Notes: generated by a model not told the origin, from the letters alone. A DNA stretch of 64,000 nucleotides from an uncultured Thermoplasmatales archaeon (GCA_964406955.1 CAYOTP010000002.1:369-64368); one strand, 5' to 3'; positions 12,198-57,534 are shown, numbered from the stretch's first letter. Made by a program: numbers and translations.

Positions 12198-14114
12198 CTA
12201 CTGTAAAGCAACAATTGATTTGTATTGATACCAATAATGCCTCAATAACTTCAAAGATTCAAAATACAATTGGGGGACGAATTTTAATGAAGTTTCAATG
12301 GTTGTAATCAATTCCCTAGACGTTTCAATAAGGTCAATTTTTCCAATCGTATTAAGAGACGATCCATTTAATTTTTCTTCAATCTGAAATAATAGTTCTA
12401 AAGAGTATTGTGCTATCCTATTTGATCGATTGAGATTTGAGTCAATGAAATCATTAAAATCAGTGAACTCTTTTATTACCTCATTCTGATCAAGCATATC
12501 TAGAGAAAAAACGGTATCAAGAAGATAAAGGTTTTCTATGGATCTCTGGACATAATCCTGCAAAATGATACTTTTGTGATAAGTGTACAATAAGGGTTGA
12601 GAGTTTTTTTGAAATAGAACTGCATCAAAAAAAAGATCCCTAAAAGGAATCAACAATTCTGAAGAGATATGTTGCAAATCTGAAAGATTTGAGGAGTAGC
12701 TATTCAGCATGTTAATTCTAACATCAAAGAATTCGTTTTGAACTAAAGGCAAGGTAAGATTCATTGTTTTTTCCATCATTTCTTTAATTATCGATGGAGG
12801 GTAACTATAATGAAATGAGGGTTTTTTATCAGCTAATCCTGAGACATAGAACAATGAATTATGAATGACCCTACGACCGTAATACTGATCCTCAGACCAG
12901 TTTCGTTGTTCAAATAGAAGTGAAATATTGTTGACAAACTCAGGATGACTTGCAAAGAGAGCTAGAGTTCCTTCACCAAAGGTCGAAGTTACCCAGTTCG
13001 GTGTTCCAATTACTTTATTAACTACCCTTGGAGTGGATGAAGATTCCAGGATAATGTTATCAAAAACACTTACACTCTGACTATTTTTTCCAAGATAGAT
13101 GAACCAAGGTCCACTGAAGAAGTCTTTAATGGGACCATTCACACCAAAGGTCAACGGATGCGAATGATTGGTGATGACTGAGCTGGAAATGAACAAATCG
13201 TTTAATAAGGATTGATGAAAACGCTGAAGAGTATCACTCAGTGAGAGCGAAAATGAGAATGGAAAACTTGATTTTTCTACCTGATAGGCATAGTTTAAGA
13301 GTAATGGGGAAAGAGGATTCAAAAATCCCGACGATGCTACTTGGGCACCATAACATGATCCAACGTAACCCCCACCTTGAGCAACAAATTTACGTATCGC
13401 ATTGAAACTATCCTTATCGATAAGATTACCAAACACTTCTGTCACTCTTGCAGGGCTCGGTTCATAAGGCCACATAAATACATTATAATCCTGGGGCGAA
13501 AGCAAGGATGATGTTTCACCATCAAGGAAAAAATCAAACGTAAGAAAACCTCCCTCATCAGCAATCTGTAGATATGCAGGCCACCCGTATCGGATTTCTT
13601 TGCCAAAATACTGTGCTATCTTTGGTTCAACAAGTTTGTAGGAATTCAAAAAGATTGGCTCCAGGAGAAAATATCCTTCAAGCGGAACCTTCCAATCATT
13701 CAGCTCTGAATCAATGCAATACTCAAAAACAATCGAGCTCAATAAACTATTTTGATGCTCATCTTTTACAAAAGGAATGATATATGATCCTTTGGAAAAT
13801 GAATGATCAACCGCACTATTCAAATCCAAAATAGCAGATACATAGCATTCTACTTTTTCGGTTGACCAATATACAGTGATGTTTTCTCTGAGAAGGTCAT
13901 TTATAAGAACGCGTGACCTTGAATTTAAAATACTTTCAAATGTGGTGTCATTTCCTGATGGGAGTGGGATGATAATACCATAAATTTCGTTGAAATCTGA
14001 ATCTAATGACAATGGTTTTGATTGTATCGAATCAACATGGGAAAATGATACACTACTTGATATTAAAAGTAGAATACATGCTAAAACAATAGCACGAGGG
14101 CGATTAATGATCAT
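12198..14114 (-). CDS. secreted hypothetical protein (638 aa) with class-I glutamine-amidotransferase-like Cys motif
   Basis: N-terminal signal/TM; GGGYVGSCYGAQ resembles a GATase1/BPL_N nucleophile elbow; no other domains I recognise. Confidence 0.55.
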   Translation of the reverse strand: MIINRPRAIVLACILLLISSSVSFSHVDSIQSKPLSLDSDFNEIYGIIIPLPSGNDTTFESILNSRSRVLINDLLRENITVYWSTEKVECYVSAILDLNSAVDHSFSKGSYIIPFVKDEHQNSLLSSIVFEYCIDSELNDWKVPLEGYFLLEPIFLNSYKLVEPKIAQYFGKEIRYGWPAYLQIADEGGFLTFDFFLDGETSSLLSPQDYNVFMWPYEPSPARVTEVFGNLIDKDSFNAIRKFVAQGGGYVGSCYGAQVASSGFLNPLSPLLLNYAYQVEKSSFPFSFSLSLSDTLQRFHQSLLNDLFISSSVITNHSHPLTFGVNGPIKDFFSGPWFIYLGKNSQSVSVFDNIILESSSTPRVVNKVIGTPNWVTSTFGEGTLALFASHPEFVNNISLLFEQRNWSEDQYYGRRVIHNSLFYVSGLADKKPSFHYSYPPSIIKEMMEKTMNLTLPLVQNEFFDVRINMLNSYSSNLSDLQHISSELLIPFRDLFFDAVLFQKNSQPLLYTYHKSIILQDYVQRSIENLYLLDTVFSLDMLDQNEVIKEFTDFNDFIDSNLNRSNRIAQYSLELLFQIEEKLNGSSLNTIGKIDLIETSRELITTIETSLKFVPQLYFESLKLLRHYWYQYKSIVALQ

Positions 14115-15012: not shown

Positions 15013-16821
15013 TTATGTTTTTACTAACAAACCACCACGTTTGAATATCTCAAGTTGCGAAAGTGAAAATGGGTTGCCCTGAATAGTAATATCTTTTGTT
15101 TTATCAAAGATTTCTCCTGTTTCAAAATCAACAGATAGTTTATCTCCATTATCGATTTTCCGCGTTATTCCTTCGGCAACAATAATGGGAAGTGCATTAT
15201 TAATCGCGTTTCTTTCATAAATTGCCCCGAAGGATTCTGCAATAATAACGCTTACGCCTAATGATTTAAAACAATCAACTGCTTGTTGCCTGCTACTGCC
15301 ACAGCCAAAGTTTTTTCCAACAACGACGATATCTCCGGGTTGAACATGTTTTGCAAAATTCTTATGACCTTGTAAATTATCAAAAGTGTATTGACCCATT
15401 TCATCAATGTCTGTAATCGAAAGATAACGGTTATGAAAGATCATATCGGTATCAATATTGTCTTTTTTAATAACCCAACTTCGACCTTCCACCTGTAATT
15501 GAGATTGACTTTGTTTTGATTCAACCGATTTTGATTGAAACGTTGGAGAATCCTCAACTGGAACAAGAGTTGGTTGCTCTAGCAGTTCATCAGCGGTAGT
15601 GATGACCCCTGAAACAAGTGATGCTGCAACAGTTGAAGGACTTGCAAGATACAGGTTTCCTTTTCCTTGTTTTCCCGTGAAATTACGATTCCCACTTGAT
15701 ATCTCTATTTCTCCTTTTCCCGTTTGACCTATTTGACCAGCGGCACAACCTGCACAACCTGCCGATCCGATTAAAGCACCAGCTTTCTTAAAGATTTTAA
15801 CAAGATCCTCCTCTAAGCATTGTTTCCAAATGGCATCAGTTGCAGGAACAATTTTAAGGACTCTACCTGGGGCCACAAAACGATTATTTAATATCTTTGC
15901 AACGTCACGCATATCTTCCATACGTCCATTAGTACAGGACCCAATGAAGCCTGAATCAACTGAAATTCCTTTTACCTCTTTCACATCAACCACATCTTCA
16001 GGATGACCTGGTCGAGAAATTTGAGGTTTAATTTCCGAAATATCAATCGTAATAGTATCTTCATATGTTGCATCATCATCTGCATAGACGGGATGAACCT
16101 CAACTCCAAATGATTTCTTATAAAAATCAAGGACCTGCTGATTTGGAGGAAACAACATGATAATGCCACCTCCTTCCGTTGCCATTGATGCAATGGTGAT
16201 TCTTCCATCAAGGGACAACTGGTCAACATACGGGCCATAGAGTTCAGCAGCATATCCTAAAAGACCATTGGCACCAAGATGTTTAAGCATATGCAAAATA
16301 ACATCTTTTGGAGTTGCAGTTTTAGAAGGCATACCCTTTAAAACAAGTTTTATCGTGGGAGGGACCTTAAACCAGATCTTTCCATGAGCCCAAGCATGGG
16401 CAATGTCCTTATCTCCCATTCCTTGTCCAAAGGCACCAACCGCACCTATAATGTTAGCATGAGAATCTGTGGAAACAATGGTCCCACCAGGCATGATCAA
16501 TCCTTTATCAATGGCAATATGAGTGCCAATTCCTTTATCTATATCATAGACCTGAATGTGATTTCTACGGGCATATAACCGGCAGATATGTTGATTTGCA
16601 GCATATTTCTGATCGCAACCACCTGGGTTACAATCAAAGGTAAAAAATGTTTTGGTCGGATCATCAACAGTAAGCGTATTTTCCTCAAGATTCTTAACAA
16701 CATTTGCCCCACCAAAATCCCTAGCGATACGGGCATCTATTTCAATATCGATAATGTCTCCTACAGCTGCTTTCTGTTTGGAATGACTCTCAAATATTTT
16801 TTGAATGATTGTTTTACCCAT
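15013..16821 (-). CDS. aconitase-family dehydratase, fused large (LeuC-like) and small (LeuD-like) subunits
   Basis: 602 aa; N-terminal about 420 aa LeuC-like with Cys ligand region GSCTNGR / CAGCAAGQ; C-terminal about 165 aa LeuD-like (GKNFGCGSSRQQA). Confidence 0.8.
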   Translation of the reverse strand: MGKTIIQKIFESHSKQKAAVGDIIDIEIDARIARDFGGANVVKNLEENTLTVDDPTKTFFTFDCNPGGCDQKYAANQHICRLYARRNHIQVYDIDKGIGTHIAIDKGLIMPGGTIVSTDSHANIIGAVGAFGQGMGDKDIAHAWAHGKIWFKVPPTIKLVLKGMPSKTATPKDVILHMLKHLGANGLLGYAAELYGPYVDQLSLDGRITIASMATEGGGIIMLFPPNQQVLDFYKKSFGVEVHPVYADDDATYEDTITIDISEIKPQISRPGHPEDVVDVKEVKGISVDSGFIGSCTNGRMEDMRDVAKILNNRFVAPGRVLKIVPATDAIWKQCLEEDLVKIFKKAGALIGSAGCAGCAAGQIGQTGKGEIEISSGNRNFTGKQGKGNLYLASPSTVAASLVSGVITTADELLEQPTLVPVEDSPTFQSKSVESKQSQSQLQVEGRSWVIKKDNIDTDMIFHNRYLSITDIDEMGQYTFDNLQGHKNFAKHVQPGDIVVVGKNFGCGSSRQQAVDCFKSLGVSVIIAESFGAIYERNAINNALPIIVAEGITRKIDNGDKLSVDFETGEIFDKTKDITIQGNPFSLSQLEIFKRGGLLVKT

Positions 16822-17609
16822 CAGTCTTCACCTTCCCCCACTTTCAAATCTCTTTCTTTGGGTCCATCATATTCACAGGTTACAGAATACATTTTCCGCA
16901 TGGGTTTAAAACGAGTTTGCTCCTCATAGACCTGGGCGGTTAATCCCGCCACTCGTCCAAGAAGGAAAAATGCTTTCCCAAGCCGCCAATCAAGCTGCAT
17001 ATCTGAAGTTACCGCCGCTATTGCACCATCCACATTTATCGGTAATTTCCTTTTAAGAGCTTGTTCCAACTCTTTTTCAATTGCTTTTGCTAATCTAATG
17101 TGATCTCCCGTTATTCCGAGTTTATCTGCAAGAGAAAACAAACGAATCGTTCGAGGATCTTGTGTATGGACCCGATGACCAAAACCAAGGATCCTTTGAT
17201 GATTCTTTCTAGATTCATCGACTACCATCGTTGCTATATCCTCAATAGAATGGTTTTCCGCTTTCATCCGTTGAATGGTTTCTTGCATAAAACATGCACT
17301 TTTTTCGATTGCGCCGCCGTGTGCATCACCAATACTTAATATTCCTGCGGCAACTGCACTTGGCAAGGGCACACCACCTGAGGCTACTACTCTAGCAGCC
17401 ATTGGCGAAGGTGAGGTAATGCCATGATCGATACAGGAAGTTAGAATTGCATCCATCATTTTTCCATGGGCTTTACTTGGTAACTCTCCTTTTAACAATA
17501 AATAGACAACATGTGGAAATGAAACATTTCCGATAAGATCCTCCTGCCGATATCCTCTGGTGATCAAATGATTTGGCTCAACTTTGGTAATCGAACTTTT
17601 CCACTCCAT
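16821..17609 (-). CDS. short citrate-synthase-family protein, citryl-CoA lyase-like
   Basis: 262 aa, C-terminal citrate synthase core only; signature GFGHRVHTQDPR (CS motif G[FY]GHxV...DPR). Confidence 0.7.
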   Translation of the reverse strand: MEWKSSITKVEPNHLITRGYRQEDLIGNVSFPHVVYLLLKGELPSKAHGKMMDAILTSCIDHGITSPSPMAARVVASGGVPLPSAVAAGILSIGDAHGGAIEKSACFMQETIQRMKAENHSIEDIATMVVDESRKNHQRILGFGHRVHTQDPRTIRLFSLADKLGITGDHIRLAKAIEKELEQALKRKLPINVDGAIAAVTSDMQLDWRLGKAFFLLGRVAGLTAQVYEEQTRFKPMRKMYSVTCEYDGPKERDLKVGEGED

Positions 17610-17615
17610 AATTCA

Positions 17616-19106
17616 TCATCCCTCTACTTTATATATCACATCAAGTAGTTCACCATTTCGCCACTTTGTAATAGCTATGATTTCATCACCAAAATCAACC
17701 ATGGGAGGACCGCCTGTTTCATCATGAGCCATTTGTTTTAATGATTCAATGGACACAATATTGATGTTGCTTTCATCTAGTTTTTCAATTAGATCCTTTC
17801 GTTTTGGATTAATAGCGATACCTTGATCGGTAACAATGGCATCAATGACATCACCTGGGGTCGTAATTGTTGTCACCGAATCACGGATGACAGGAATCTT
17901 TTTTCGATATACTGGGACTGTTATCATTGTTAGATTTGCACCAGCTGCTGAATCCTGATGACCACCTATTCCATGAAGCAACCGGCCATCGCTATGGGTA
18001 TTTACATTCACATTAAAATTGGTGTCCACTTCCGTTGCTCCAAGGATGGTTGCATGAAGACCATCAAGAAACCGGCCCTTAGATGAAGGATCTGCATAAT
18101 GACCAATATCAGTAATCAATCTTCTTGTTTCGGCGATATATTTTATGCTTTCCACATCAAAACATTGCAGTCCATATGCATTTCGAACAAATCCTTTTCG
18201 ATGCATATCTGCAATAAATTTAGTGAAACCCCCAGTTTCACAGGCAGCAACCACATTGTTCTCCTCTAAAATCTCATCAAGATATTGTAATGCTGCTAGG
18301 GAAATACCGCCTGCTCCAGCCTGAAAGATCAATCCATCTTTAATCAGATCAAGTGCATTCATTAAATCCATACATTGCTGGGCAATATGAAGTTTTTGAG
18401 GATCATTAGTTACTTTTAGTGAACCTGAGACGATATCTTGGGGATTGCCAATTTCATCCATTTCAACGACAAAATCAACATATCCTTCATTGATTTCTTG
18501 ATAGCCACAAGGTCGTTCTACCAAGTTATCTGTAACCACTATCACATGGTCAGCATTCATCGCATCAACTTGGGAATAACATATAGGGCCAAACGCACTT
18601 TTTCCAATTAAACCGGTACAATTTCCCCTGTTATCCGCTGCAGATGCAGCAATTATTGCAACATCAACATGAAGTTCATCATTTTTGACTGCCGCCCAGC
18701 GTCCACCATGGGATCGTAATACCACCGGATGAGGTAATGGGTTTTTTGAAACATAATCACCTACAATACCATTGATACTTCCTTCTATACGATCTACCGT
18801 ACCTTGTTTGATATGGTCAATGACGGGTTTATGAATGGGAAACAATGCCGTTTGTGCTAAACGAAGATTTTTCACTCCCAATTCACTAATAACATCTAAC
18901 GTATGATTGATGACATAATCGCCATTTCTTAGTTGATGATGAAACGAGATGGTTTGTCCGTCTTTCAACCCACTTTGTTGTAGTGCTTTTTTCAAACTGG
19001 TTACCTTTGAATTGCAATTGTTTTTATGTGCCTTTTTAAAAGGTTTATACGTTTCTCCTGCAATTGTTTCTGGTATAAGCTTTCCAGCAGAGTTTCTCAT
19101 GCTCAT
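17616..19106 (-). CDS. citF: citrate lyase alpha subunit / citrate CoA-transferase (CitF family)
   Basis: 496 aa; collinear with E. coli CitF from SGLKDGQTISFHH to the C-terminal TEVDTNFNVNV...GGHQD...ITVP...IVTDQGIA block. Confidence 0.8.
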   Translation of the reverse strand: MSMRNSAGKLIPETIAGETYKPFKKAHKNNCNSKVTSLKKALQQSGLKDGQTISFHHQLRNGDYVINHTLDVISELGVKNLRLAQTALFPIHKPVIDHIKQGTVDRIEGSINGIVGDYVSKNPLPHPVVLRSHGGRWAAVKNDELHVDVAIIAASAADNRGNCTGLIGKSAFGPICYSQVDAMNADHVIVVTDNLVERPCGYQEINEGYVDFVVEMDEIGNPQDIVSGSLKVTNDPQKLHIAQQCMDLMNALDLIKDGLIFQAGAGGISLAALQYLDEILEENNVVAACETGGFTKFIADMHRKGFVRNAYGLQCFDVESIKYIAETRRLITDIGHYADPSSKGRFLDGLHATILGATEVDTNFNVNVNTHSDGRLLHGIGGHQDSAAGANLTMITVPVYRKKIPVIRDSVTTITTPGDVIDAIVTDQGIAINPKRKDLIEKLDESNINIVSIESLKQMAHDETGGPPMVDFGDEIIAITKWRNGELLDVIYKVEG

Positions 19107-19678
19107 TCTTCCACCATTGATTTTTTAATTTCAAAATCAATGAAATCACAATGATTAACAATAACTGCTTCTGCAGATCGTTTCGTTTTATCACCCTCGT
19201 GAGAATGTGCATAGATAATATGAGCTATTTCATCCGGAAGGCCATGTTGCCATGCCAGTTTTGCTCCTGAAACAGGATGGCGGAATTTTTTCCCATATTC
19301 TCCTTTCACGATTTTTTGATCAACGATGTCATATTCAACAAGTTTTCCTACATCATGAAGTAACGCACCGGCAATCAGATAATCTTGATTGAGGTCTTCA
19401 TCCCGTTGTTTCATAATGGTATAGACCATACGAGTTATTCGTTTCGTATGATCTGTTAATTTTCCAGAGTTATCAAAAAGTAATGTAAAGGGGACGTCAT
19501 GAATGCTATTCCATCCTCTTTCTTCTGCTGCAGTTTTCCATATGGCTACAACTTTCTCTCGTATAGTTTCTTCTTTTATCCAAGATAGTTCTTCAGAAAA
19601 ACAATTTTTTATTTCTTCTTCACTTACCACAACTGGTACCCCCAGAAAGCTTTTATTTTGATTGCCAACGTAATACAA
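19103..19678 (-). CDS. HD-domain phosphohydrolase
   Basis: 191 aa; HD motif GALLHDVGK; first gene of the citF operon. Confidence 0.65.
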   Translation of the reverse strand: MYYVGNQNKSFLGVPVVVSEEEIKNCFSEELSWIKEETIREKVVAIWKTAAEERGWNSIHDVPFTLLFDNSGKLTDHTKRITRMVYTIMKQRDEDLNQDYLIAGALLHDVGKLVEYDIVDQKIVKGEYGKKFRHPVSGAKLAWQHGLPDEIAHIIYAHSHEGDKTKRSAEAVIVNHCDFIDFEIKKSMVEE

Positions 19679-19967
19679 TCCACTTATTATTAATATTTGG
19701 TCTAGTTACCTGAAAAATTAAAAAAATTTGGGACTGAGGGAAGGAAAGAGGTGATTTAGAGGGGTATTGGATGGGTACCCGTAAAAATTTTGGGTGTGCT
19801 TCCTTCCCAACCAGCTTCCAAGTATAGGAAATAATTTTTACTTTTAAGTGCCTTTTTCGCAGGTAGATATACTTGTGTATGTGCACAACAGTATGGATAT
19901 TGGATAATACTTGTAAAAGAAATTTTAATAAATAACAAGTATAAAATATGTTCTGCAGCGTGTTTCT

Positions 19968-21263
19968 ATGTCAGCAGGGCTACTAAAACGACTTCGTATT
20001 TCTAAGATCGATGCGATCATTGTTGTGGTGTTAGTAGTTATAGCTGGCTATGTTCTTTCCCAATCGGAATATGTTTCTCCTGCAATTGAAAAAGTCGTTA
20101 GCCCGATAACTGAAGAAGAAGCAGTAGTTCCCCCAGAACCAGAAGAACCAGAACTCCCCCTACCCCCTGAATCCTTAACTGCAGGATATATGAGAGCAGT
20201 TTCCCCTGAAGATGAGGGGCTTCATTTTGATAAGATAGCAGTGACGAGAGAATGGTGGTATTATTCAGCAATTTTTGATGATGATAGTGATCTAGCCGGA
20301 TGGACCATAACAATTAGTTTTAATCATATGGCAAGAACTGATCTTTTAGGAACTGCAAAACCTGATCTCTTTGTATTTACGCTGCATGGTCCAAATGGTG
20401 AAAGTTATGGAGGGTTGACCAATGAAGAAAGAGGATTAGGCATATTAAAACAACCAACTCTTCAAGCAAAAACTCCTGGTGTAGGAGTGAGTTTTGAAAA
20501 ATCTTGGGCTGAGGGGAGTGCACCAGAATGGTTCGTACACGCTGAAGATAATGACATTGATAAAAATCATGATATCGTTGCCGATTTGAAATTCTTTGCA
20601 CCCAACGACCCGATTTGGACTATGGGTGATAAAGCGCTAACGAAGAATCAGCAGAATCTAGCATCTTACGTGTTTCTTGGCTGTGAGGTGACGGGAACGG
20701 TCAAAATCGATGGGGAACATTATGATGTAAGTGGAGTGGGATTTCATGAGCATACTTGGTCTCCAAATGTGGTAACAAAAATTCTTGTGAATGGGTGGGA
20801 TTGGACTCAGATTCGTTTGGATAATGGTTGGACCATCTATTATCAAACGTATTATCCAACACCCCAATATATTACTACGAAAACCCCAAATATTAATCCA
20901 TTTGGATCATTGATACTAACCACAGATCATGGAAAAACGCTTACATCTTTTGATAAGGTAGGTCGGGAAATAGTGGATGCAGATGATGAAATTTTTACGT
21001 TTGTTAAAATGCCATTGGATATCTCAGTGAATGGGGGGGCAGGGGTTTTGCAACCATTGCTTAGCTCATATAGAATATCGATTGATTTTAACATTCGTGC
21101 AAGTAACACCTATGAACATGTGTGGAAGTTTCCAACCTATGTAGGAATGAATATTGGCCGATCAACAGTGGGTGGCAGCATTAGTTGGTCCGATGATGAC
21201 GGAGATCATGATGTTTCTTTTACAGGGATTGCAAGTTCTTGGAACATGAGGGCATTTTTATAA
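19968..21263 (+). CDS. secreted hypothetical protein, possible AttH/CrtC-like lipocalin domain
   Basis: 431 aa; N-terminal TM anchor, Pro/Glu-rich linker; Trp-rich blocks WWYYSAIFDD, GWDWTQIRLDNGW. Confidence 0.5.
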   Translation: MSAGLLKRLRISKIDAIIVVVLVVIAGYVLSQSEYVSPAIEKVVSPITEEEAVVPPEPEEPELPLPPESLTAGYMRAVSPEDEGLHFDKIAVTREWWYYSAIFDDDSDLAGWTITISFNHMARTDLLGTAKPDLFVFTLHGPNGESYGGLTNEERGLGILKQPTLQAKTPGVGVSFEKSWAEGSAPEWFVHAEDNDIDKNHDIVADLKFFAPNDPIWTMGDKALTKNQQNLASYVFLGCEVTGTVKIDGEHYDVSGVGFHEHTWSPNVVTKILVNGWDWTQIRLDNGWTIYYQTYYPTPQYITTKTPNINPFGSLILTTDHGKTLTSFDKVGREIVDADDEIFTFVKMPLDISVNGGAGVLQPLLSSYRISIDFNIRASNTYEHVWKFPTYVGMNIGRSTVGGSISWSDDDGDHDVSFTGIASSWNMRAFL

Positions 21264-21290: not shown

Positions 21291-21674
21291 TTATTTAAAT
21301 GTTACTTCACCATCATCCGCATTTAGCAAGATCACATCCCCTGTTTTTATTTGATCGATGTCAACGTGATCAACACAGGGAATACCTGCCAATATTGCCC
21401 CTGTTGCAACAATTGTTTCCGTTTCCTTATTGATAATGCCTAAAGGCCCCACACCATTCTTCTGCAGACCATATATCACATAAGATCCAACAGTGGATCC
21501 TTTTCCATTGGGAAACACAAGAATCTTTCCTTTCACTGAGTAACCCTTTAAAGGATGGCTTTTATCTATAATGATACCTGAATTTAAATCAATGCCACCA
21601 TAAAAACCAATAGGTTCAGTTGATACAATTGCTTCACCCTGGACGATACCAGGGGAAATCATCCTTCCTTTCAT
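21291..21674 (-). CDS. aconitase X swivel-domain subunit (DUF126), phosphomevalonate dehydratase small subunit
   Basis: 127 aa; Gly-rich DUF126 pattern; immediately downstream of the AcnX catalytic subunit. Confidence 0.8.
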   Translation of the reverse strand: MKGRMISPGIVQGEAIVSTEPIGFYGGIDLNSGIIIDKSHPLKGYSVKGKILVFPNGKGSTVGSYVIYGLQKNGVGPLGIINKETETIVATGAILAGIPCVDHVDIDQIKTGDVILLNADDGEVTFK

Positions 21675-22858
21675 CAGGACACCTCCTCAATAAGTTTATC
21701 GATATCTGCAAACATCACTTTTTGCTTACAAAAACCAGGTAAATAATTGGCAGCTTTACCTGAATTCACTCCAGTTTGATGATAACCCATTTGTTCAATT
21801 GGAGACACAACCATACAGGTATCAGCAACCACATGTCCTCCAGCAGCCAAGATGATTTCTGAAAAACCCATTCTATCAGAAGCTTCCTTCATCATTCTTG
21901 ATGTGCAAATCCATACGGGTTTTTTCAATTGTTTTCCCTTCACTTTCTCTGCCAAAACAGCTATCTCCCTCAACGAAGCATGGGGGCATCCAAGAATGAC
22001 GATATCTAGGTTGTCACCATCAGTTAAGGTTTCATAGGTCTCATCAATATCTTTCTGCTCAACGGTAATTTTCTCCCCAATGTCTTTGTTAACTAGATCT
22101 GCTTCAGGTGTTAGTTCATTCACATGATACAACGCAACAGCACCTGAAGCGGCCATTGCAGCACCTAAAGCTTTTAAATGATCGGTATTTGCATCTGTGA
22201 TCCCTGTAAAATAGGGAATTTTGTTTTTCACTTTTTTTCCAACATAGTAGCCTAATGACCCATAATCAGAAGTAAATGAAAGCTTCGCATCAACATGGAT
22301 TTGTATCGTTGGCTGTCTGTTCTTCCAAAGATGCAAACCATACTCTGGAGTACGACCACAAAGTGATGCCGCAAGTGCAGAGGGGCCTCCCTCCCTATTT
22401 GTACGAGCTCCAATTACTGAATTGGAAAATGAAACAGCAGAAGATTCAGACCAAGCAATATGTTCCCGAAACCGGGGAAGATTCCCAGCCAAATAAGGTG
22501 TACAGGTGGAAGTAATAACTATTCCCATTTTTTTAAATGCATCAATAATCCTTAACTGATTCTTTGCAAATTCCTCAGGGAAACCAAGTTCTTTATAGTT
22601 CTCAAGGTCCATACCCGCAGGATTTAAAAAAGTAAGCACTTGAGCCTTTGCATCTTTTGAAGCAATATCTTCAAGAAAAGTGGTTCCCGGTTCTCCTATG
22701 GATTTGTAGGAAACACCTGCAACTTGGACGGATCCAACAGGAATCATTTTTTCAGCACCGTAAATCTCCCCTAATCGAACCAACAGTCGAAACATTCGTT
22801 CCTTGACCTCACCAGCTTCACCATCAAGCATTTGTTCCTCTTCAGTAGTTAGATACAT
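21674..22858 (-). CDS. aconitase X catalytic subunit (DUF521), phosphomevalonate dehydratase large subunit
   Basis: 394 aa; Cys-containing AcnX catalytic domain; in operon with MVK and UbiD homolog. Confidence 0.8.
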   Translation of the reverse strand: MYLTTEEEQMLDGEAGEVKERMFRLLVRLGEIYGAEKMIPVGSVQVAGVSYKSIGEPGTTFLEDIASKDAKAQVLTFLNPAGMDLENYKELGFPEEFAKNQLRIIDAFKKMGIVITSTCTPYLAGNLPRFREHIAWSESSAVSFSNSVIGARTNREGGPSALAASLCGRTPEYGLHLWKNRQPTIQIHVDAKLSFTSDYGSLGYYVGKKVKNKIPYFTGITDANTDHLKALGAAMAASGAVALYHVNELTPEADLVNKDIGEKITVEQKDIDETYETLTDGDNLDIVILGCPHASLREIAVLAEKVKGKQLKKPVWICTSRMMKEASDRMGFSEIILAAGGHVVADTCMVVSPIEQMGYHQTGVNSGKAANYLPGFCKQKVMFADIDKLIEEVS

Positions 22859-23175
22859 GATTCAAGCTCCTTGCAATTCTTCATAATAATATCAATATCT
22901 TCTTTTGTTGCATTATCTATATGAATTCCCCCTACTACAACAACAGTGGTATCATATTTTTTACATGCTTTTTCAGCAATTGGTCCCAACACAAGATAGT
23001 CTTTATGCGTCCCCAATCGGATTGTATTTGATTTTTCACCAGGTTCACAAACAACCACACTACCAATATGAGGTTTTTCACCACCCTGTACCACATACAG
23101 GAGGTTTTCCCCCACCATATGTTTTTCAATTTTAACCCAGTGTTTACCCGTTCCCGATGTAATCATCGATATCAA
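22849..23175 (-). CDS. conserved hypothetical protein embedded in mevalonate operon
   Basis: 108 aa; overlaps both neighbours by a few nt (translational coupling); no motif I recognise. Confidence 0.5.
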   Translation of the reverse strand: MISMITSGTGKHWVKIEKHMVGENLLYVVQGGEKPHIGSVVVCEPGEKSNTIRLGTHKDYLVLGPIAEKACKKYDTTVVVVGGIHIDNATKEDIDIIMKNCKELESCI

Positions 23176-24460
23176 CTAATTCATAATGTACTTTCTCATA
23201 ATTTTTTTTATCGACATGTTCCGGAATGGTTGCATCAATCCCCATCTTTGCAGTACGTGTTTTTTCCCCAGGAACATGAACACCGGATGGATCCAATGAA
23301 CTACCCGTCTGAAGTTCTTTGACCAGTAAATCTTTATCTGATTGAAAACGAGTTGCTATCGCCCATTCAACAGCCAAAGGATCATAAATGTCAACATCCT
23401 CATCAACGATTACAACATGTTTCAAACTCCCATGCCCTTTAAATGCTGCTTCAATTGCTTTCTTTGGTTCATCAGGGTGCTTTTTGTTGATTTGTACTAT
23501 AGCATGAAGCCAAGATCCACCACCAATAGTGACGTACACGTTGGAACAAGACGTAACTTTACTGACTTCGTGATAAATCGTTGGTTCCTTGGGCATCCCC
23601 ATCAATGTCTTATGCTCAAATCGACCAGGTATTAATGCTTGATACATCGCATCATTTCGATGGGTGATACAATCAACGACAAATACAGGTTCCTGTCTTT
23701 CAAAATCCCGTGTTTCCGTAAGATCAACAAAAGGGCCTTCCCGATCAACATCACGAGTGAGACGACCTTCAAGCACAATCTCTGAAAAAGCAGGCACCTC
23801 CAAATCCTTGGTCTTACATTTCACAAGTGGTGTTTCATCTAATGCATTGGCAATACCGAACTCATCAACAGTAGATGGTGGGCCAAGTGATGCAGCAACC
23901 ATTACTGCCACAGAACTTCCTAGGCACACAGCCATTTCGAGGTCACCGTCGATTTTATCAAAAGTAGTTCGGGTTTGTCTTTTTTTTATCAGTCGAGCAG
24001 TAAGTTTGTTTTTCCCAACCTGCATCAATCGATGATATGAGACGTTCCGTCCATCATCTGGATCCTTGATGGTACATACAGATGCTGAGACATATCTTCC
24101 ACCATCTCCATGGAGGTGATGTAGCAGGGGTAGACAAGAAAGATCCGGATTGGTTATCACCTTTTCTTGACAAGGTGCTTTTTCAATGATTTCTGGTTTT
24201 TTTGGATTCTTTAAAGCATCAACCAGTTTAAACAGTAGTTCTTCTTTGCTTGTATTTAATCCCTGGGCTATGATATCTCTATTTGAAGTGATTCCTGCAA
24301 ATACGGGAAAATCAAATCCTTTGACTTTTTCAAACAACACCGGTTGTTCCTTTAATGAATAAATGATGTTAGCTGCTTCAAACTGATGAGAAATAGGTCT
24401 AGTGATACGGGTGAGTTTCTGCTCATCTTCAAGTTTTTTTAGAAAGGAGCGAAGATCCAT
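23144..24460 (-). CDS. UbiD-family decarboxylase (likely trans-anhydromevalonate-5-phosphate decarboxylase)
   Basis: 438 aa UbiD-like; genomic context with MVK and AcnX matches the archaeal alternative mevalonate pathway. Confidence 0.8.
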   Translation of the reverse strand: MDLRSFLKKLEDEQKLTRITRPISHQFEAANIIYSLKEQPVLFEKVKGFDFPVFAGITSNRDIIAQGLNTSKEELLFKLVDALKNPKKPEIIEKAPCQEKVITNPDLSCLPLLHHLHGDGGRYVSASVCTIKDPDDGRNVSYHRLMQVGKNKLTARLIKKRQTRTTFDKIDGDLEMAVCLGSSVAVMVAASLGPPSTVDEFGIANALDETPLVKCKTKDLEVPAFSEIVLEGRLTRDVDREGPFVDLTETRDFERQEPVFVVDCITHRNDAMYQALIPGRFEHKTLMGMPKEPTIYHEVSKVTSCSNVYVTIGGGSWLHAIVQINKKHPDEPKKAIEAAFKGHGSLKHVVIVDEDVDIYDPLAVEWAIATRFQSDKDLLVKELQTGSSLDPSGVHVPGEKTRTAKMGIDATIPEHVDKKNYEKVHYELVDIDDYIGNG

Positions 24461-25411
24461 CTAAAGGTCACCTTGTCTTTTAACACCAATGCTAGTTTTT
24501 AATGCTTTGAACCCTTCTTTTTCAATGGCATTTGCCACTTCATCTTGTAATCTTTTCCCAGGAGTTAATGCTAACATATTACCACCAAGACCGCCACCAG
24601 TAAGTTTTGCTCCATATGCCCCATAATCCCGGGCAAGCTTAACAAGGAAATCAAGCTCTCTTGAAGAAACTTCGATTTGTTGTAATAACTTATGATTTTC
24701 ATTCATCAATTTACCGATCTCATGAACGTCTTCATCGATAAATGCCTGTTTTGCCAAATACGCAATATTTTCAGCTCTTTTGAAAATTTCTTCGTATTTC
24801 TCAGGCTGCGCCTCCTTTCTCTGTCTAACACCACTAACAGCAGCCGTGGTGTCTGCCACTTTTCCTGTATTTCCCATTACAATTTCAATTTGATTTTGAA
24901 GTTCAATTCTATCCATAACGGGTGGTTGTTTTTTTTCAAACCATATCAGGCCGCCAAAGGTCGATGCAGTGTTATCAATTCCAGATGGAGTTCCATGATA
25001 TCCTTTTTCACCTTCATACGCTATTTCATTGATTTCATCATCAGATAATTCCAATTGATAAAAATTAGAGAGTGCTCTTGCTACGGCCACACATGATGCT
25101 GCGCTTGCTCCGATACCACTTGCAGCATATAATGTGCCTGCTAATTCAATTTCAACGCCTTCTTTTGAGAAATCAAGATTCATTTTTTGTATTATTCGTT
25201 TTATCGAATCCTTTTGCTGATCCTTTTTATCCTCCTTATATTTAGGAGTTGCGTTTCGGTTATCAACTAGGGACAATCTCGCTTCATGATATGTCTTAGC
25301 TTTTGCAATGGTATACTTATCAATTGCAGAAACAATTGCTGGCACACCATACACAACGAAATGTTCATTGAACAAAATAGCCTTTCCAAAACCTATACCC
25401 TCACCATTCAT
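24461..25411 (-). CDS. mvk: mevalonate kinase (GHMP kinase)
   Basis: 316 aa; N-terminal KAILFNEHFVVYG and GHMP P-loop-like Gly-rich motif LTGGGLGG. Confidence 0.75.
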   Translation of the reverse strand: MNGEGIGFGKAILFNEHFVVYGVPAIVSAIDKYTIAKAKTYHEARLSLVDNRNATPKYKEDKKDQQKDSIKRIIQKMNLDFSKEGVEIELAGTLYAASGIGASAASCVAVARALSNFYQLELSDDEINEIAYEGEKGYHGTPSGIDNTASTFGGLIWFEKKQPPVMDRIELQNQIEIVMGNTGKVADTTAAVSGVRQRKEAQPEKYEEIFKRAENIAYLAKQAFIDEDVHEIGKLMNENHKLLQQIEVSSRELDFLVKLARDYGAYGAKLTGGGLGGNMLALTPGKRLQDEVANAIEKEGFKALKTSIGVKRQGDL

Positions 25412-53884: not shown

Positions 53885-54718
53885 ATGCAACAAAATCAAG
53901 TGGAAGAACGGGAAAAACAAGAAGAAGGCATTAAAAAAAATCTTAACAAAATCAAACAAGTCATCGTGGTGTTAAGTGGAAAAGGCGGAGTTGGAAAAAG
54001 TACGGTTTCAACAAACTTAGCATTAACCTTGGCACAACAGGGAAATAAAGTTGGTTTACTCGATAGTGATATACATGGGCCAACGATTCCAACTATGCTT
54101 GGACTTTCAGGCAGGCGAATAACCCAATCAGCCGATGGATTAAAACCTATTAAAGCAACAGAAAATCTACAAGTATTATCTATGGGATTTCTAATTGAAA
54201 ACCAGGATGATGCCATTATTTGGCGAGGTCCAATGAAGATGGGAGCCATCAAACAATTAATCGGAGATTTTAATTGGGGTGCCTTAGATTATTTAATTAT
54301 TGATCTACCACCAGGTACTGGCGATGAACCACTAAGCATTGCTCAGATTATACCAAAGATTACTGGAGCAATCATTGTAACCACACCTCAAGATGTGGCA
54401 TTAGTGAGCGTAAGAAAGTCAATTACTTTTGTAAACAAGATTAAAATACCCATAATCGGAATTATTGAGAACATGAGCGGGTTTACTTGCCCACATTGTA
54501 GAAAAAAAATCGACATCTTTAAAAGTGGTGGTGGTAAGAAGGCAGCAGATGAATTTAACCTTTCATTTTTGGGCTCCATTCCACTGGACCCAACAATTGT
54601 TGAAACAGGGGATACGGGATCAATAAATCTGTTAAAAGATACGATTTTAGCGACATCGTTTGTAAGCATTGCAGCAAATGTAAAAAATAGTATAAAGAAA
54701 AAGGAGGAAAAAAAGTAA
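53885..54718 (+). CDS. Mrp/NBP35 (ApbC) family Fe-S cluster carrier ATPase
   Basis: deviant Walker [10 protein letters not shown]; CPHC (CxxC) cluster-bridging motif. Confidence 0.85.
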
Positions 54719-54942
54719 TGCCCCAAAGAGACGGAACAGGCCCTATAGGAAAAGGCAGGGGATATAATCAGGATCGAGGGGGTGGATATGGGAAAGGCCT
54801 TGGAAGGAGTGGTGGAACAGCGCAAGGTCCTGGTGGACGCTGCCGATGCCCAAATTGTGGCCATACTGAACCACATGAACTTGGAACGCCTTGTTATCAT
54901 AGGAGATGTCCAAAATGTGGCTCACCGATGACCCGTGCTTAA
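54718..54942 (+). CDS. DUF5320-like N-terminus fused to C-terminal double zinc ribbon
   Basis: 74 aa; [15 protein letters not shown] parallels MPSGDRTGPEG of ORF 53445; C-terminus CRCPNCG...CPKCG. Confidence 0.6.
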   Translation: MPQRDGTGPIGKGRGYNQDRGGGYGKGLGRSGGTAQGPGGRCRCPNCGHTEPHELGTPCYHRRCPKCGSPMTRA

Positions 54943-55006
54943 ATAACATCTGTTAATGACAACGATTATTAAAGAGAGATGAATTCTCGCTCAGCATAGT
55001 GATAAA

Positions 55007-55405
55007 ATGAAAGTAATTGTAACTGCAACAAAAGATACTCTTGACGGCCCAGTTGATCCTCGTTTTGGACGATGTCAATATTTTATAACAGTGGACACTG
55101 AGAATCTTGAGTATACTGTAATGGAAAACTCTCAAAAAAATGCCATGGGTGGGGCAGGTGTGCAAGCGGCCCAAACCGTAGCCAATGCACAAGTTGACGC
55201 AGTGATCACCGGTTCAGTTGGACCAAACGCATTTCAAACACTGAATGTCGCCGGAGTTAAGATATTTACCGGTGCAAGCGGAACCGTGAAAGAGGCCATT
55301 ATGGCATTGAACCAAGGCTCATTGCAAGAAACAAATGATTCAACAGTTGGATCACATCACGGAATGAGTAAACAAGATCATGAAACGAAGGGGGATAAGC
55401 AATGA
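55007..55405 (+). CDS. NifX/NafY-like dinitrogenase FeMo-cofactor-binding family protein
   Basis: 132 aa; PF02579-like pattern: N-terminal strand then RFGRC, ...G.G...A......V..VI.G..G..A...L...GI. Confidence 0.8.
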   Translation: MKVIVTATKDTLDGPVDPRFGRCQYFITVDTENLEYTVMENSQKNAMGGAGVQAAQTVANAQVDAVITGSVGPNAFQTLNVAGVKIFTGASGTVKEAIMALNQGSLQETNDSTVGSHHGMSKQDHETKGDKQ

Positions 55406-55782
55406 AAGTTGGAATTCCTTCAATGGGTGAAAAAGGATTAGATGAACAAGTTGGTCAGCATTTTGGTCGAGTTACTCACTACACTATAGTTGATTTAGAT
55501 AAAGATACGGTTACTGTTATTACTAATACTAGCCATCACATGGGTGGAACCGTTGAACCACCTGAACTGTTAAAAAACGAAGGGGTATGTGTGATGCTGT
55601 GTTCCGGTCTTGGCCGACGAGCAATCAATCTTTTCGAACAAATGGGCATTGATGTTTACATTGGTGCATCAGGAAAAGTTCGCGATGCAATCACTGCATT
55701 TGAACAAGGTAATTTAAAGCAAGCAACCATGTCCGATGGTTGCCAGGAACACACCTTTGGCGAACATCGCCATCATCACTAA
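55402..55782 (+). CDS. NifX/NafY-like cofactor-binding family protein, second copy
   Basis: 126 aa; HFGRV... and LCSGLGRRAINLFEQMGIDVY blocks; His-rich tail HRHHH. Confidence 0.8.
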   Translation: MKVGIPSMGEKGLDEQVGQHFGRVTHYTIVDLDKDTVTVITNTSHHMGGTVEPPELLKNEGVCVMLCSGLGRRAINLFEQMGIDVYIGASGKVRDAITAFEQGNLKQATMSDGCQEHTFGEHRHHH

Positions 55783-55837
55783 TACCACTATTTTTCCTTT
55801 TAAATGTAATATTAATTAATCGGAGGCATAAGTAAAT

Positions 55838-56701
55838 ATGCAGACCCATCTTGATTGTATCCCTTGTTTTTTACATCAATCACTTGAAGCCGCACGCATG
55901 GCAACCAGTGATGAAAAAAAACATGAAGAAGTAATGAAAAAAGTCATGGATCATTTACAAACCATTGATTTTACGCTTTCACCACCTGAAATCTCACAAC
56001 ATGTTCACCATATTATTCGTACGGTTACAGGCAATACCGACCCATATATAAAAGTGAAAGAAGAAGCAAATCAACAAGCAAAAAATCAATATCCTACATT
56101 AAAAAAAATGGTTGAACAAAGCGATGATTCATTGTTGATGGCTGCAAAACTTGCAATTATTGGAAATGTGATTGATTTTGGAACCATGAATCGAATGAAT
56201 GTAAAAGAAATGATTGAAAACATTGCACATAAACCATTTGATGATGCTGGTTATGAACTATTTAAACAACGAGTGAAAGACGCAAAAACAATTGTGTATT
56301 TAGCTGATAACACCGGTGAAATCTTCTTTGATCGGCTTCTTCTTGAACAATTACACAATGAAAACAGGCAGATTACCTATGTGGTAAAACAGTATCCAAT
56401 CATTAATGATGCGACAAAAGATGATGCATTATATGCGGGTATAGATGCATATGCAGATATCATTGCAGGTGATAAAGACGCTACATATTCAGCTCCAGGC
56501 TTAGTACTCTCAAATATGTCTACTGAGTTGAAAGATTTAATTAATAGTGCTGATTTGGCGATATCTAAGGGACAAGGGAACTATGAATCATTAAGCGAAT
56601 TTGACCGTGAAATCTTTTTTTTATTAATGGTAAAGTGCCCGCTTGTTGCATCTAACATTGGGATTAATGTTGGAACCATGGTGTTAAAGGTGAAAAAATG
56701 A
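55838..56701 (+). CDS. DUF89 (ARMT1-like) family protein
   Basis: 287 aa; N-terminal CIPCF motif and overall DUF89 pattern. Confidence 0.7.
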   Translation: MQTHLDCIPCFLHQSLEAARMATSDEKKHEEVMKKVMDHLQTIDFTLSPPEISQHVHHIIRTVTGNTDPYIKVKEEANQQAKNQYPTLKKMVEQSDDSLLMAAKLAIIGNVIDFGTMNRMNVKEMIENIAHKPFDDAGYELFKQRVKDAKTIVYLADNTGEIFFDRLLLEQLHNENRQITYVVKQYPIINDATKDDALYAGIDAYADIIAGDKDATYSAPGLVLSNMSTELKDLINSADLAISKGQGNYESLSEFDREIFFLLMVKCPLVASNIGINVGTMVLKVKK

Positions 56702-57534
56702 AAATTGCTATTGCCAGTGGTAAGGGAGGTACAGGTAAAACTACCGTTGCGGTTAATCTTGCGTTAATTGCTCAGCATGCACAATTATTAGATGCTGATG
56801 TTGAAGAACCTAATGCAAACTTGTTTTTACATGCAAAATTTTCAGAAGAAAAAAAAATAACGGTTTCTGTTCCTGAAATCAATGAGAATCGATGTATATA
56901 TTGTGGAAAATGCAGCAAGTTTTGTGCATATAATGCGCTAGCAGTGGTTCCCCATAAAGTTTTAGTGTTTGCAGATTTGTGTCATTCCTGCAAAGGATGT
57001 GAACTGGTATGCCCCAAGAATGCTGTTGGTTGGCGGAATCGAGAAGTGGGCTTGCTTCGCAGAGGAAAAGAAAATGGAGTTTCTATTGTTGAAGGAGATT
57101 TAAATTTAGGGGAGAGCCAAGCTATTCCCGTGATCAAAGCATTGAAACAAGAAATTGATCTAAATAAAACAGTCATTATTGATGCGCCACCGGGAACGTC
57201 TTGTCCGGTGATGGAAGCAATTGAGGATAGTGACTATGTTGTATTAGTAACTGAGCCTACACCGTTTGGACTTCATGATTTGAAACTTGCTGTTGAAGTC
57301 GTTCGACGGATGAAACTTCTGTTTTGCGTAGTGATTAATCGTGATGGTGTCGGAGATAAACGAGTTGAGTTGTATTGTCGACAAGAAGAAATCCCAGTTT
57401 TGCTAAAGATTCCACATGATACTCGAATAGCTTCATTGTATTCAGATGGAGAGCCTTTCGTTAATCACATGCCAGAGTTAAAACAGGATTTTCAAGAATT
57501 ATTAAATCGAATTAAGAAGGAGATATCCTCATGA
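56698..57534 (+). CDS. MinD/ParA-family P-loop ATPase with inserted 2x[4Fe-4S] ferredoxin domain
   Basis: deviant Walker A SGKGGTGKTT; CIYCGKCSKFC and CHSCKGCELVCP cluster motifs. Confidence 0.8.
   Translation: MKIAIASGKGGTGKTTVAVNLALIAQHAQLLDADVEEPNANLFLHAKFSEEKKITVSVPEINENRCIYCGKCSKFCAYNALAVVPHKVLVFADLCHSCKGCELVCPKNAVGWRNREVGLLRRGKENGVSIVEGDLNLGESQAIPVIKALKQEIDLNKTVIIDAPPGTSCPVMEAIEDSDYVVLVTEPTPFGLHDLKLAVEVVRRMKLLFCVVINRDGVGDKRVELYCRQEEIPVLLKIPHDTRIASLYSDGEPFVNHMPELKQDFQELLNRIKKEISS

Follow-up and report, generated by a model that had tools for sequence, protein, structure and literature searches.

Predicted ACP- and ATP-independent citrate lyase of two soluble enzymes, a CitF-type CoA-transferase and a stand-alone citryl-CoA lyase, in an operon of an uncultured Thermoplasmatales archaeon

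In textbook accounts, the thioester-dependent cleavage of citrate is carried out either by the acyl carrier protein (ACP)-dependent citrate lyase during fermentation or by the ATP-dependent systems of the reductive tricarboxylic acid (TCA) cycle, namely ATP-citrate lyase (ACL) and the pair of coenzyme A (CoA)-linked enzymes citryl-CoA synthetase/citryl-CoA lyase (CCS/CCL), the reversal of citrate synthase being a recent addition. Here, we analyze an operon on the minus strand (19678..15013) of a DNA stretch of 64,000 nucleotides (nt) from an uncultured Thermoplasmatales archaeon (GCA_964406955.1, CAYOTP010000002.1:369-64368; this whole stretch is hereafter called the window), in which a CitF-type CoA-transferase is followed by a stand-alone CCL and by a fused LeuC-LeuD protein of an unusual subfamily, designated LeuCD*. 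Judging from the sequences, we predict with modest confidence that the operon encodes an ACP- and ATP-independent citrate lyase composed of two soluble enzymes. Our full-text searches of the literature found no description of the CitF-CCL pairing or of the LeuCD* subfamily, the Thermoprofundales genome paper mentions neither citrate lyase, nor citryl-CoA, nor aconitase, and surveys of citrate cleavage (PMC13147460 among them) recognise no routes other than ACL, CCS/CCL, the reversal of citrate synthase and the classical citrate lyase.

The operon consists of four head-to-tail open reading frames (ORFs), in the order HD-CitF-CCL-LeuCD*, and adjoins an intergenic region:

19103..19678, minus strand: HD phosphohydrolase, 191 amino acids (aa) from the TTG at 19678 (PF01966, 3e-13)
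17616..19106, minus strand: CitF-type CoA-transferase (citrate lyase alpha-subunit family), 496 aa (PF04223, 1.5e-136)
16821..17609, minus strand: stand-alone citryl-CoA lyase, a short citrate-synthase-family protein, 262 aa (NF004866, 296 bits)
15013..16821, minus strand: fused LeuC-LeuD (LeuCD*), an aconitase-superfamily Fe-S protein, 602 aa (PF00330 and PF00694)
19679..19967, no strand: presumed promoter region, AT-rich and intergenic, 289 bp, between the operon and a divergent DUF7065 gene

A first-pass annotation of the same DNA had reported the CitF homolog, the short citrate-synthase-family protein and the fused LeuCD, and all these ORFs were recovered on the minus strand at the coordinates listed above. 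The stop codon of the HD gene overlaps the CitF start by 4 nt (ATGA), CitF and CCL are separated by 6 nt, and CCL and LeuCD* overlap by 1 nt (TGATG). Since the junctions overlap or span only 6 nt, the genes are almost certainly co-translated, and the arrangement indicates translational coupling of all four. The 289-bp region is presumed to hold the operon promoter; it has T/A-rich stretches around 19725-19710 and 19697-19682.

The window CitF belongs to the same family as the alpha subunit of the bacterial citrate (pro-3S)-lyase CitDEF (EC 4.1.3.6), known with CitC, CitX and CitG from E. coli and Klebsiella, and the predicted chemistry is also the same, i.e., acyl exchange onto citrate followed by cleavage. 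It passes the TIGR01584 'citF' cut-off (505.6 against 501.45 bits) in a collinear match of protein residues 30-495 to model positions 23-491, which bears out the earlier description of a full-length CitF collinear with that of E. coli, and it matches the Salmonella CitF (1xr4) with 381 bits. The residues are well conserved: 96 of the 114 positions (84%) that are invariant among 11 CitE-linked CitFs, including the E. coli protein, are kept. Its predicted reaction is acetyl-CoA:citrate CoA-transfer. Unlike CitDEF, however, the operon lacks CitD, CitE and the prosthetic-group and activation genes nearby, its cleavage step is assigned to a citrate-synthase-fold enzyme and not to the aldolase-type CitE, and the thioester in such a scheme would have to be carried by free CoA or a derivative of it.

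The absence of the remaining components was examined in all six-frame ORFs of at least 50 aa from the window and from 80 related genome loci, which were obtained with a CitF alignment from a GTDB set that has a single genome for each species; 53 of these loci, from species-representative Thermoplasmatota genomes, form the CitF clade of the window (at least 57% identity). The queries were CitC, CitD, CitE, CitF, CitX and CitG of the E. coli K-12 cit operon. In phmmer searches with E. coli CitC, CitD, CitE, CitX and CitG, neither the window nor any locus where CCL accompanies CitF (CCL-type loci) gave a match, and for CitX, CitG and CitC this holds for all the loci (E up to 1e-3); hidden Markov models (HMMs) of CitD and CitE, made from the archaeal and bacterial sequences, likewise had no match in the window or the CCL-type loci at E up to 10. 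The same searches found CitE and CitD only beside more distant CitFs, with CitE next to CitF in 10 other loci. Neither CitD nor CitE occurred within about 8 kb at any of about 50 CCL-type loci, while all CitE-type loci have it adjacent, and the operon itself has no room for an additional ORF. The first-pass statement that citD, citE, citX and citG are absent therefore holds within the 64-kb window and the CCL-type loci, for citD and citE by phmmer and HMM alike and for citX and citG by phmmer. Moreover, E. coli SucC and SucD, used as phmmer proxies for citryl-CoA synthetase, had no match in the window or the 80 genome loci, and their sole match was in a metagenomic locus (L146).

The CCL of the operon exceeds the cut-off of the NF004866 'citryl-CoA lyase' model (245 bits), matches the Hydrogenobacter thermophilus CCL (6hxp) with 219.7 bits and contains the GFGHRV...DPR motif, in agreement with the earlier call of a short citrate-synthase-family protein of the citryl-CoA lyase type. 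When aligned with E. coli GltA (numbering used here; list of catalytic and oxaloacetate-binding residues taken from PMC13147460), H229, H264, H305, R314, D362, F383 and R387 are kept in the window CCL and in all 56 aligned homologues, and R407 is replaced by Lys, as in the H. thermophilus enzyme. The presence of the residues that hold the oxaloacetate 4-carboxylate argues for citryl-CoA over citramalyl-CoA as the substrate, and these oxaloacetate-type residues disfavour the citramalate and methylcitrate alternatives that the first-pass annotation had put forward. The identity among the top 120 CCL homologues is 74-97%. The CCL reaction was reported to lie near equilibrium (ΔrG'm -2.1 ± 3.9 kJ/mol; PMC13147460). 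The operon and the CCS/CCL system of H. thermophilus, which serves the reductive TCA cycle, both possess an unfused CCL of similar length (about 260 aa), and the active-site residues of the two are the same; in contrast to that system, the operon would make citryl-CoA by CitF-mediated CoA transfer and not by an ATP-dependent SucCD-like synthetase, and it would yield acetate plus regenerated acetyl-CoA in place of net acetyl-CoA. A CCL module is also common to ATP-citrate lyase (AclAB), but the window CCL is single-domain and unfused, and the window contains no ATP-grasp or CoA-ligase domains.

The arrangement of these genes is not a matter of chance. CCL lies directly downstream of CitF in 46 of the 47 clade loci with enough sequence (in 44 of them after a gap of 6-19 nt), the HD gene directly upstream of CitF in 46 of 48, and a fused LeuCD follows CCL in 25 of 42. 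In one genome (L085), the HD-CitF-CCL-LeuCD unit is found in an entirely different neighbourhood; hence, the four genes travel as a unit and are not tied to the mevalonate genes that adjoin them in the window. Wherever the fused LeuCD is lacking, CCL is followed on the same strand by the gene for a 439-aa B12-binding radical-SAM protein (with DUF4070), as in L013 (10324-11643) and at the equivalent spot of about 17 loci. In a neighbour-joining tree, CitF fell into several clades, each with different partners, and CitF-CCL pairs occur in separate ones:

HD-CitF-CCL(-LeuCD): Thermoplasmatota
CitF-CCL alone: Methanomassiliicoccales and other Thermoplasmata (L060, L062, L065, L079)
CitD-CitE-CitF: other archaea (L056-L059 and L080, the more distant CitFs beside CitD and CitE)
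CitD/E-CitF-HD-LeuC-LeuD: metagenome-assembled genomes (MAGs) of Thermotogae, Bipolaricaulota and Neomarinimicrobiota
CitF followed by a 392-aa aconitase-family protein

In a further locus (L076, 7914-12414; Thermoplasmatota MAG244), two CitF paralogues with 45% and 42% identity to that of the window flank a CCL and an HD gene. An apparent HD-LeuC fusion in L075 was dismissed as an artefact of ORF calling, as its two matches lie in different frames.

We infer the substrates, the CoA donor, the direction of flux and the LeuCD* reaction as follows. CitF would convert citrate and acetyl-CoA to (3S)-citryl-CoA and acetate, and CCL would then split citryl-CoA into oxaloacetate and acetyl-CoA, thereby regenerating the CoA donor; the net reaction would be citrate to oxaloacetate and acetate, with acetyl-CoA acting catalytically. 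Because the isolated alpha subunit of citrate lyase accepts acetyl-CoA (EC 2.8.3.10) and CCL acts on free citryl-CoA (EC 4.1.3.34), the proposed chemistry needs no new catalytic invention. Cleavage, which turns one molecule into two, is favoured thermodynamically at cellular concentrations. Ahead of the lyase step, LeuCD* would most likely convert citrate to cis-aconitate (or isocitrate) and back, or it may perform one half-reaction only, like PrpD in the methylcitrate cycle. In peptide-fermenting sediment archaea, citrate could plausibly be derived from glutamate via 2-oxoglutarate and isocitrate. The first-pass annotation had already suggested an ACP-independent route in which CCL works with CitF in place of CitD and CitE, and this core agrees with all the computational tests made, given the 46 of 47 pairings, the lack of ACP and CitE genes nearby, the intact CCL site and the conserved CitF, while its account of the LeuCD and HD components had to be corrected.

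LeuCD* is a member of the aconitase family, yet not an ordinary LeuCD, as the earlier annotation had taken it to be. The one family threshold that it passes is that of the generic PRK00402 (385.7 bits; cut-off 385), and the nearest solved relatives of its halves are the isopropylmalate/citramalate isomerase and the homoaconitase of M. jannaschii (237.6, 229.9 and 127 bits); the LeuD domain gives 127 bits to the small subunit of the former and 94 bits to homoaconitase. In an alignment with MJ0499, MJ1003 and pig aconitase, the three Fe-S Cys ligands, D165-S166-H167, N446-R447 and the GSSR motif are kept, and the following sites differ:

General-acid His101 motif: canonical FDH; FDC in the window subfamily (Thr or Leu in relatives)
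Arg452 motif: canonical NRNFxGR; NRNFxGK in the window subfamily
Gln72-equivalent: canonical His (vHD); Arg (aRD) in the window subfamily
LeuD specificity loop: canonical YLVY/M (isopropylmalate) or YLRT (homoaconitate); YLSI in the window and YL[S/H/A/T][I/V] across the subfamily

Thus, the M. jannaschii MJ0499/MJ1277 isomerase and MJ1003/MJ1271 homoaconitase share the Fe-S ligands, DSH and GSSR with LeuCD* but differ from it in these four motifs (with YLVY and YLRT in their loops), and in LeuCD* the subunits are fused. This signature is invariant among the genome relatives and recurs in 80 of 80 metagenomic ones. In particular, every one of the 27 genome homologues and 80 metagenomic homologues of the subfamily lacks His101 and has Lys for Arg452, whereas canonical LeuCDs encoded beside LeuCD* retain the standard His and Arg. 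An exhaustive search of 1.84 billion representatives delimited LeuCD* as a small, sharply bounded subfamily. The specificity loop, with its YL[S/H/A/T]I pattern, is of neither the isopropylmalate nor the homoaconitate type, and we rejected the assignment of LeuCD* as a leucine-pathway isomerase, since the His101/Arg452 loss is conserved and the gene is linked to citrate-cleaving genes in unrelated bacteria. The first-pass annotation had the hydro-lyase acting on the lyase product, which does not hold: oxaloacetate and acetyl-CoA cannot be its substrates, and the context places it on the citrate/aconitate side. LeuCD* is, therefore, a probable citrate/aconitate-handling hydro-lyase with altered catalytic residues. 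Two fused LeuCD*-like proteins with 36% identity to that of the window (P0367 and P0371) have lost the three Fe-S Cys, the DSH motif and GSSR, and are apparently non-catalytic paralogues; a metagenome scan with the cluster-less P0367 gave no match.

The HD gene precedes the operon genes, as had been noted before, but it is not a mere bystander: it is translationally coupled to CitF, is found in 46 of 48 clade genomes and recurs with the LeuCD variant in bacteria. It is an obligatory partner of the operon, whose role we leave unassigned in the scheme. Besides PF01966, the protein matches TIGR00277 (HDIG) and has both the H...HD...D metal-binding motif and the all-helical HD fold, with the metal ligands H77, H108-D109, H134, H158 and D178 being invariant across 30 homologues. 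Since the homologues are 173-175 aa long and the first 14 residues are disordered in the AlphaFold2 model (pLDDT 90.8; residues 1-14 disordered), the true start is probably not the TTG at 19678 but the GTG at 19630, which gives 175 aa with the consensus N-terminus (MVxxEEI...). A fold search with this model returned the YhaM HD domain as the top PDB match (E 3.9e-5, TM 0.69), and it found generic HD phosphohydrolases only, giving no clue to the substrate. One idea is that the HD protein might shorten CoA to 3'-dephospho-CoA, which CitF otherwise encounters as the moiety on CitD.

A metagenome scan with the LeuCD* alignment, in which ORFs were clustered and representatives scanned, yielded 80 loci from sediments, groundwater and sludge. 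They comprise recurrent gene orders, some with isocitrate dehydrogenase (IDH)-like genes, and we list them together with three individual loci:

IDH-like, HD, LeuCD*, canonical LeuCD, CitD-CitE fusion, CitF: L087, L093, L099, L113, L120, L126, L164
IDH-like, HD, LeuCD* alone: nine loci
AraC, LeuCD*, LeuCD: twelve loci of one bacterial lineage (L092, L094, L106, L116, L130, L143, L145, L153, L155, L161, L162, L166)
L146, 631-9157 (metagenome contig Ga0180433_10013699): LeuCD*, LeuC, LeuD, SucC-like (431 aa), SucD-like/CCL fusion (714 aa)
L080, 6890-13169 (Theionarchaea MAG): CitD-CitE-CitF, 187-aa ORF, HD, MmgE/PrpD-family dehydratase
L052, 5746-13272 (Thermoplasmata MAG AUK202): unfused LeuC*-LeuD*, HD, CitF, 349-aa CCL with an N-terminal extension, canonical LeuC/LeuD (loop ALKV), Iso_dh

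LeuCD* thus adjoins three citrate-cleaving systems, namely CCL with CitF (the window), CitD-CitE with CitF (bacteria) and the SucC-like protein with the SucD-CCL fusion (L146). By its domains, the latter pair has an ATP-citrate-lyase or fused CCS-CCL architecture, and it holds the position beside LeuCD*/LeuCD that CitF-CCL holds in the window. That LeuCD* and HD handle citrate or aconitate is suggested above all by their linkage to β-decarboxylating dehydrogenases and to three systems of citrate cleavage that are not homologous to one another, which is the strongest argument available for it. IDH-like genes accompany LeuCD* in 23 metagenomic loci; their products match no isocitrate dehydrogenase equivalog, the best match being homoisocitrate dehydrogenase, well below the cut-off. 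Canonical LeuCD and an IDH-like enzyme would complete the stretch from citrate to 2-oxoglutarate, and L052 represents the fullest archaeal version of the module. In bacterial loci, LeuCD* usually precedes canonical LeuCD, a pairing that resembles one isomerisation split between two enzymes, as in PrpD plus aconitase (2-methylcitrate cycle) or Aco2 plus Lys4 (fungal lysine synthesis), and in L080 a PrpD-family dehydratase occupies the slot held elsewhere by LeuCD-type genes; the window operon itself is devoid of canonical LeuCD, however, and the likeness is an analogy only. The AraC regulator ahead of LeuCD*-LeuCD suggests an inducible operon. The AraC-type loci also share a conserved upstream synteny with BioG-like esterase, BrkB, ComB-like phosphatase and GT2 genes, with no lyase nearby.

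We regard CitF and CCL as known catalytic modules in a new, conserved combination, whereas the LeuCD*/HD pair might be more than that. One may speculate that a widespread and entirely uncharacterised pathway, with HD, LeuCD* and CitF at its core, operates in anaerobic microbes of sediments and groundwater as a 'reductive branch' module (IDH-like, HD, LeuCD*, LeuCD, citrate-cleaving enzyme), which would convert 2-oxoglutarate (e.g., from glutamate) to oxaloacetate and acetate or acetyl-CoA. In such a pathway, CitF-CCL would represent nature's third way of cleaving citrate, one that needs neither ATP nor a carrier protein, LeuCD* with its rebuilt acid/base machinery would perform only the citrate/cis-aconitate half, and HD would supply or edit the thioester cofactor, e.g., 3'-dephospho-CoA that mimics the CitD prosthetic group. 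Taken as a whole, this extended proposal is possible but doubtful.

Several observations weigh against a two-enzyme, ACP-independent citrate lyase. Four positions that are invariant in CitE-linked CitFs, D318, S329, H336 and R409 (in alignment numbering, six higher than that of the protein), are consistently substituted in the clade linked to CCL; we speculate that they mark a lost interface with ACP or CitE. In 17 of 42 genomes, the operon has no LeuCD*, and CCL is followed after about 60 nt by the B12-binding radical-SAM gene instead. LeuCD* may not be an aconitase at all, because the general-acid His is gone, the LeuD loop has no Arg, and the relatives P0367 and P0371 have no Fe-S ligands. 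Moreover, the proposed chemistry has no step for a phosphohydrolase, yet HD is nearly always present, and citD, citE, citX and citG, or CCS, could sit outside the 64-kb window. The last point leads to the view that the window CitF is part of a classical ACP-dependent citrate lyase with citD, citE, citX and citG elsewhere in the genome, and that CCL and LeuCD are unrelated neighbours. The view of the genome is indeed limited to 64 kb, CitF passes the citF equivalog threshold, and more distant archaeal CitFs (L056-L059, L080) do adjoin CitD and CitE. Nevertheless, the tight spacing of CCL behind CitF in 44 genomes and its presence in 46 of 47, the lack of CitD and CitE around the CCL-type loci, and the recurrence of the pair in separate CitF clades make this highly improbable.

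The same two enzymes might instead run in synthesis as an energy-conserving citrate synthase, a reverse reading that the first-pass annotation had also raised, with CCL condensing acetyl-CoA and oxaloacetate, CitF passing the CoA to acetate, such that the thioester is not hydrolysed, and LeuCD* (with an IDH encoded elsewhere) pulling citrate to 2-oxoglutarate for glutamate. The high CCL identity among the top 120 homologues is as expected of a housekeeping enzyme, the L052 module with canonical LeuCD and Iso_dh would provide the three steps from oxaloacetate to 2-oxoglutarate, and IDH-like genes accompany LeuCD* in the 23 metagenomic loci. In addition, no TCA, citrate-transporter or oxaloacetate decarboxylase genes were found among the scanned window ORFs (44 of the 63 larger ORFs, scanned with Pfam or NCBIfam, plus several labelled via the near-identical contig L083 with precomputed Pfam), and the lack of the latter two nearby is in line with synthesis. 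However, at physiological concentrations it is unfavourable to make citrate out of oxaloacetate plus acetate, and at millimolar and lower levels the equilibrium of citrate lyase is on the side of cleavage; an ACL-like enzyme, which normally cleaves, takes the lyase's place in L146, and bacterial relatives use the ACP-type citrate lyase, a catabolic enzyme. We consider synthesis rather unlikely. Possibly, the substrate is not citrate but an analogue of it (citramalate, 2-methylcitrate, homocitrate or isopropylmalate, for example), and the module belongs to a pathway that shortens or elongates 2-oxoacid chains, with LeuCD* as the matching alkylmalate isomerase. This would fit the LeuD domain, which is nearest to the isopropylmalate/citramalate isomerase small subunit and is devoid of the Arg that recognises the gamma-carboxylate, the IDH-like partners, which match no isocitrate dehydrogenase equivalog, and the AraC regulator, which precedes LeuCD* in 13 loci and hints at an inducible catabolic operon; CitDEF homologues are, furthermore, known as citramalate lyases. 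On the other hand, CCL keeps H229, R387 and K/R407, which hold the oxaloacetate 4-carboxylate, in a site identical to that of the citryl-CoA-specific H. thermophilus CCL, the ACL-like enzyme stands in for the lyase in L146, and the LeuD loop residue is variable (S/H/A/T) and not hydrophobic. An analogue as the true substrate is thus an unlikely option, and the cleavage of citrate by CitF and CCL remains our preferred explanation.

If true, a soluble CoA-transferase together with CCL would constitute a further ATP-free and ACP-free citrate cleavage, its parts recombined from two known systems. The pair is present in dozens of benthic Thermoplasmatota species (Marine Benthic Group D (MBG-D)-like archaea) and in thousands of metagenomic proteins, and MBG-D-like archaea rank with the most abundant archaea of marine sediments. 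In pathway-calling pipelines, genomes of this kind currently appear as 'citrate lyase incomplete' or 'CCL present, rTCA?' (rTCA, reductive TCA cycle), and recognising the pair would change carbon-flow reconstructions. The CitF-CCL pair is also relevant to the evolution of the CCL module, from which citrate synthase and ACL arose, while LeuCD*, with an intact Fe-S site and replaced catalytic residues, and its ever-present HD partner are well-defined targets for enzyme discovery.

The window has a GC content of about 36% and carries archaeal markers (TFIIB, fibrillarin, an archaeal ThrRS editing domain and AcnX/UbiD-type mevalonate genes). The nearest relatives of its proteins are from uncultured Thermoplasmatota/Thermoplasmatales MAGs, including the MBG-D genomes SG8-52-3 and SM1-50. 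An Rfam scan of the whole window gave no match. Aside from the operon, the scanned ORFs encode housekeeping proteins, peptidases and transporters, none of them linked to citrate. An archaeal modified mevalonate-pathway cluster (21291-25411, minus strand) is syntenic with the operon in most close relatives, although not in L085, and comprises the following genes:

21291-21674, minus strand: AcnX small subunit
21674-22858, minus strand: AcnX large subunit
22849-23175, minus strand: LpdD-like chaperone
23144-24460, minus strand: UbiD-family decarboxylase
24461-25411, minus strand: GHMP kinase

A tie between the operon and these mevalonate genes (AcnX, UbiD-like, GHMP kinase) was rejected, since the divergent DUF7065 gene lies between them and the L085 unit is located elsewhere. 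This gene (19968-21263, plus strand) encodes a 431-aa protein with a borderline DUF7065 match (27 bits), and its position is kept in most of the clade (44-78% identity). Downstream of the operon, a 638-aa ORF (12198-14114, minus strand) with no significant Pfam/NCBIfam family is kept in L001, L005, L047 and L083. A run of Fe-S-related P-loop genes (53885-58415, plus strand) encodes an NUBPL/Mrp-type ParA ATPase, an ARMT1-like damage-control phosphatase and two CbiA/MinD-type ATPases with inserted 4Fe-4S ferredoxin domains.

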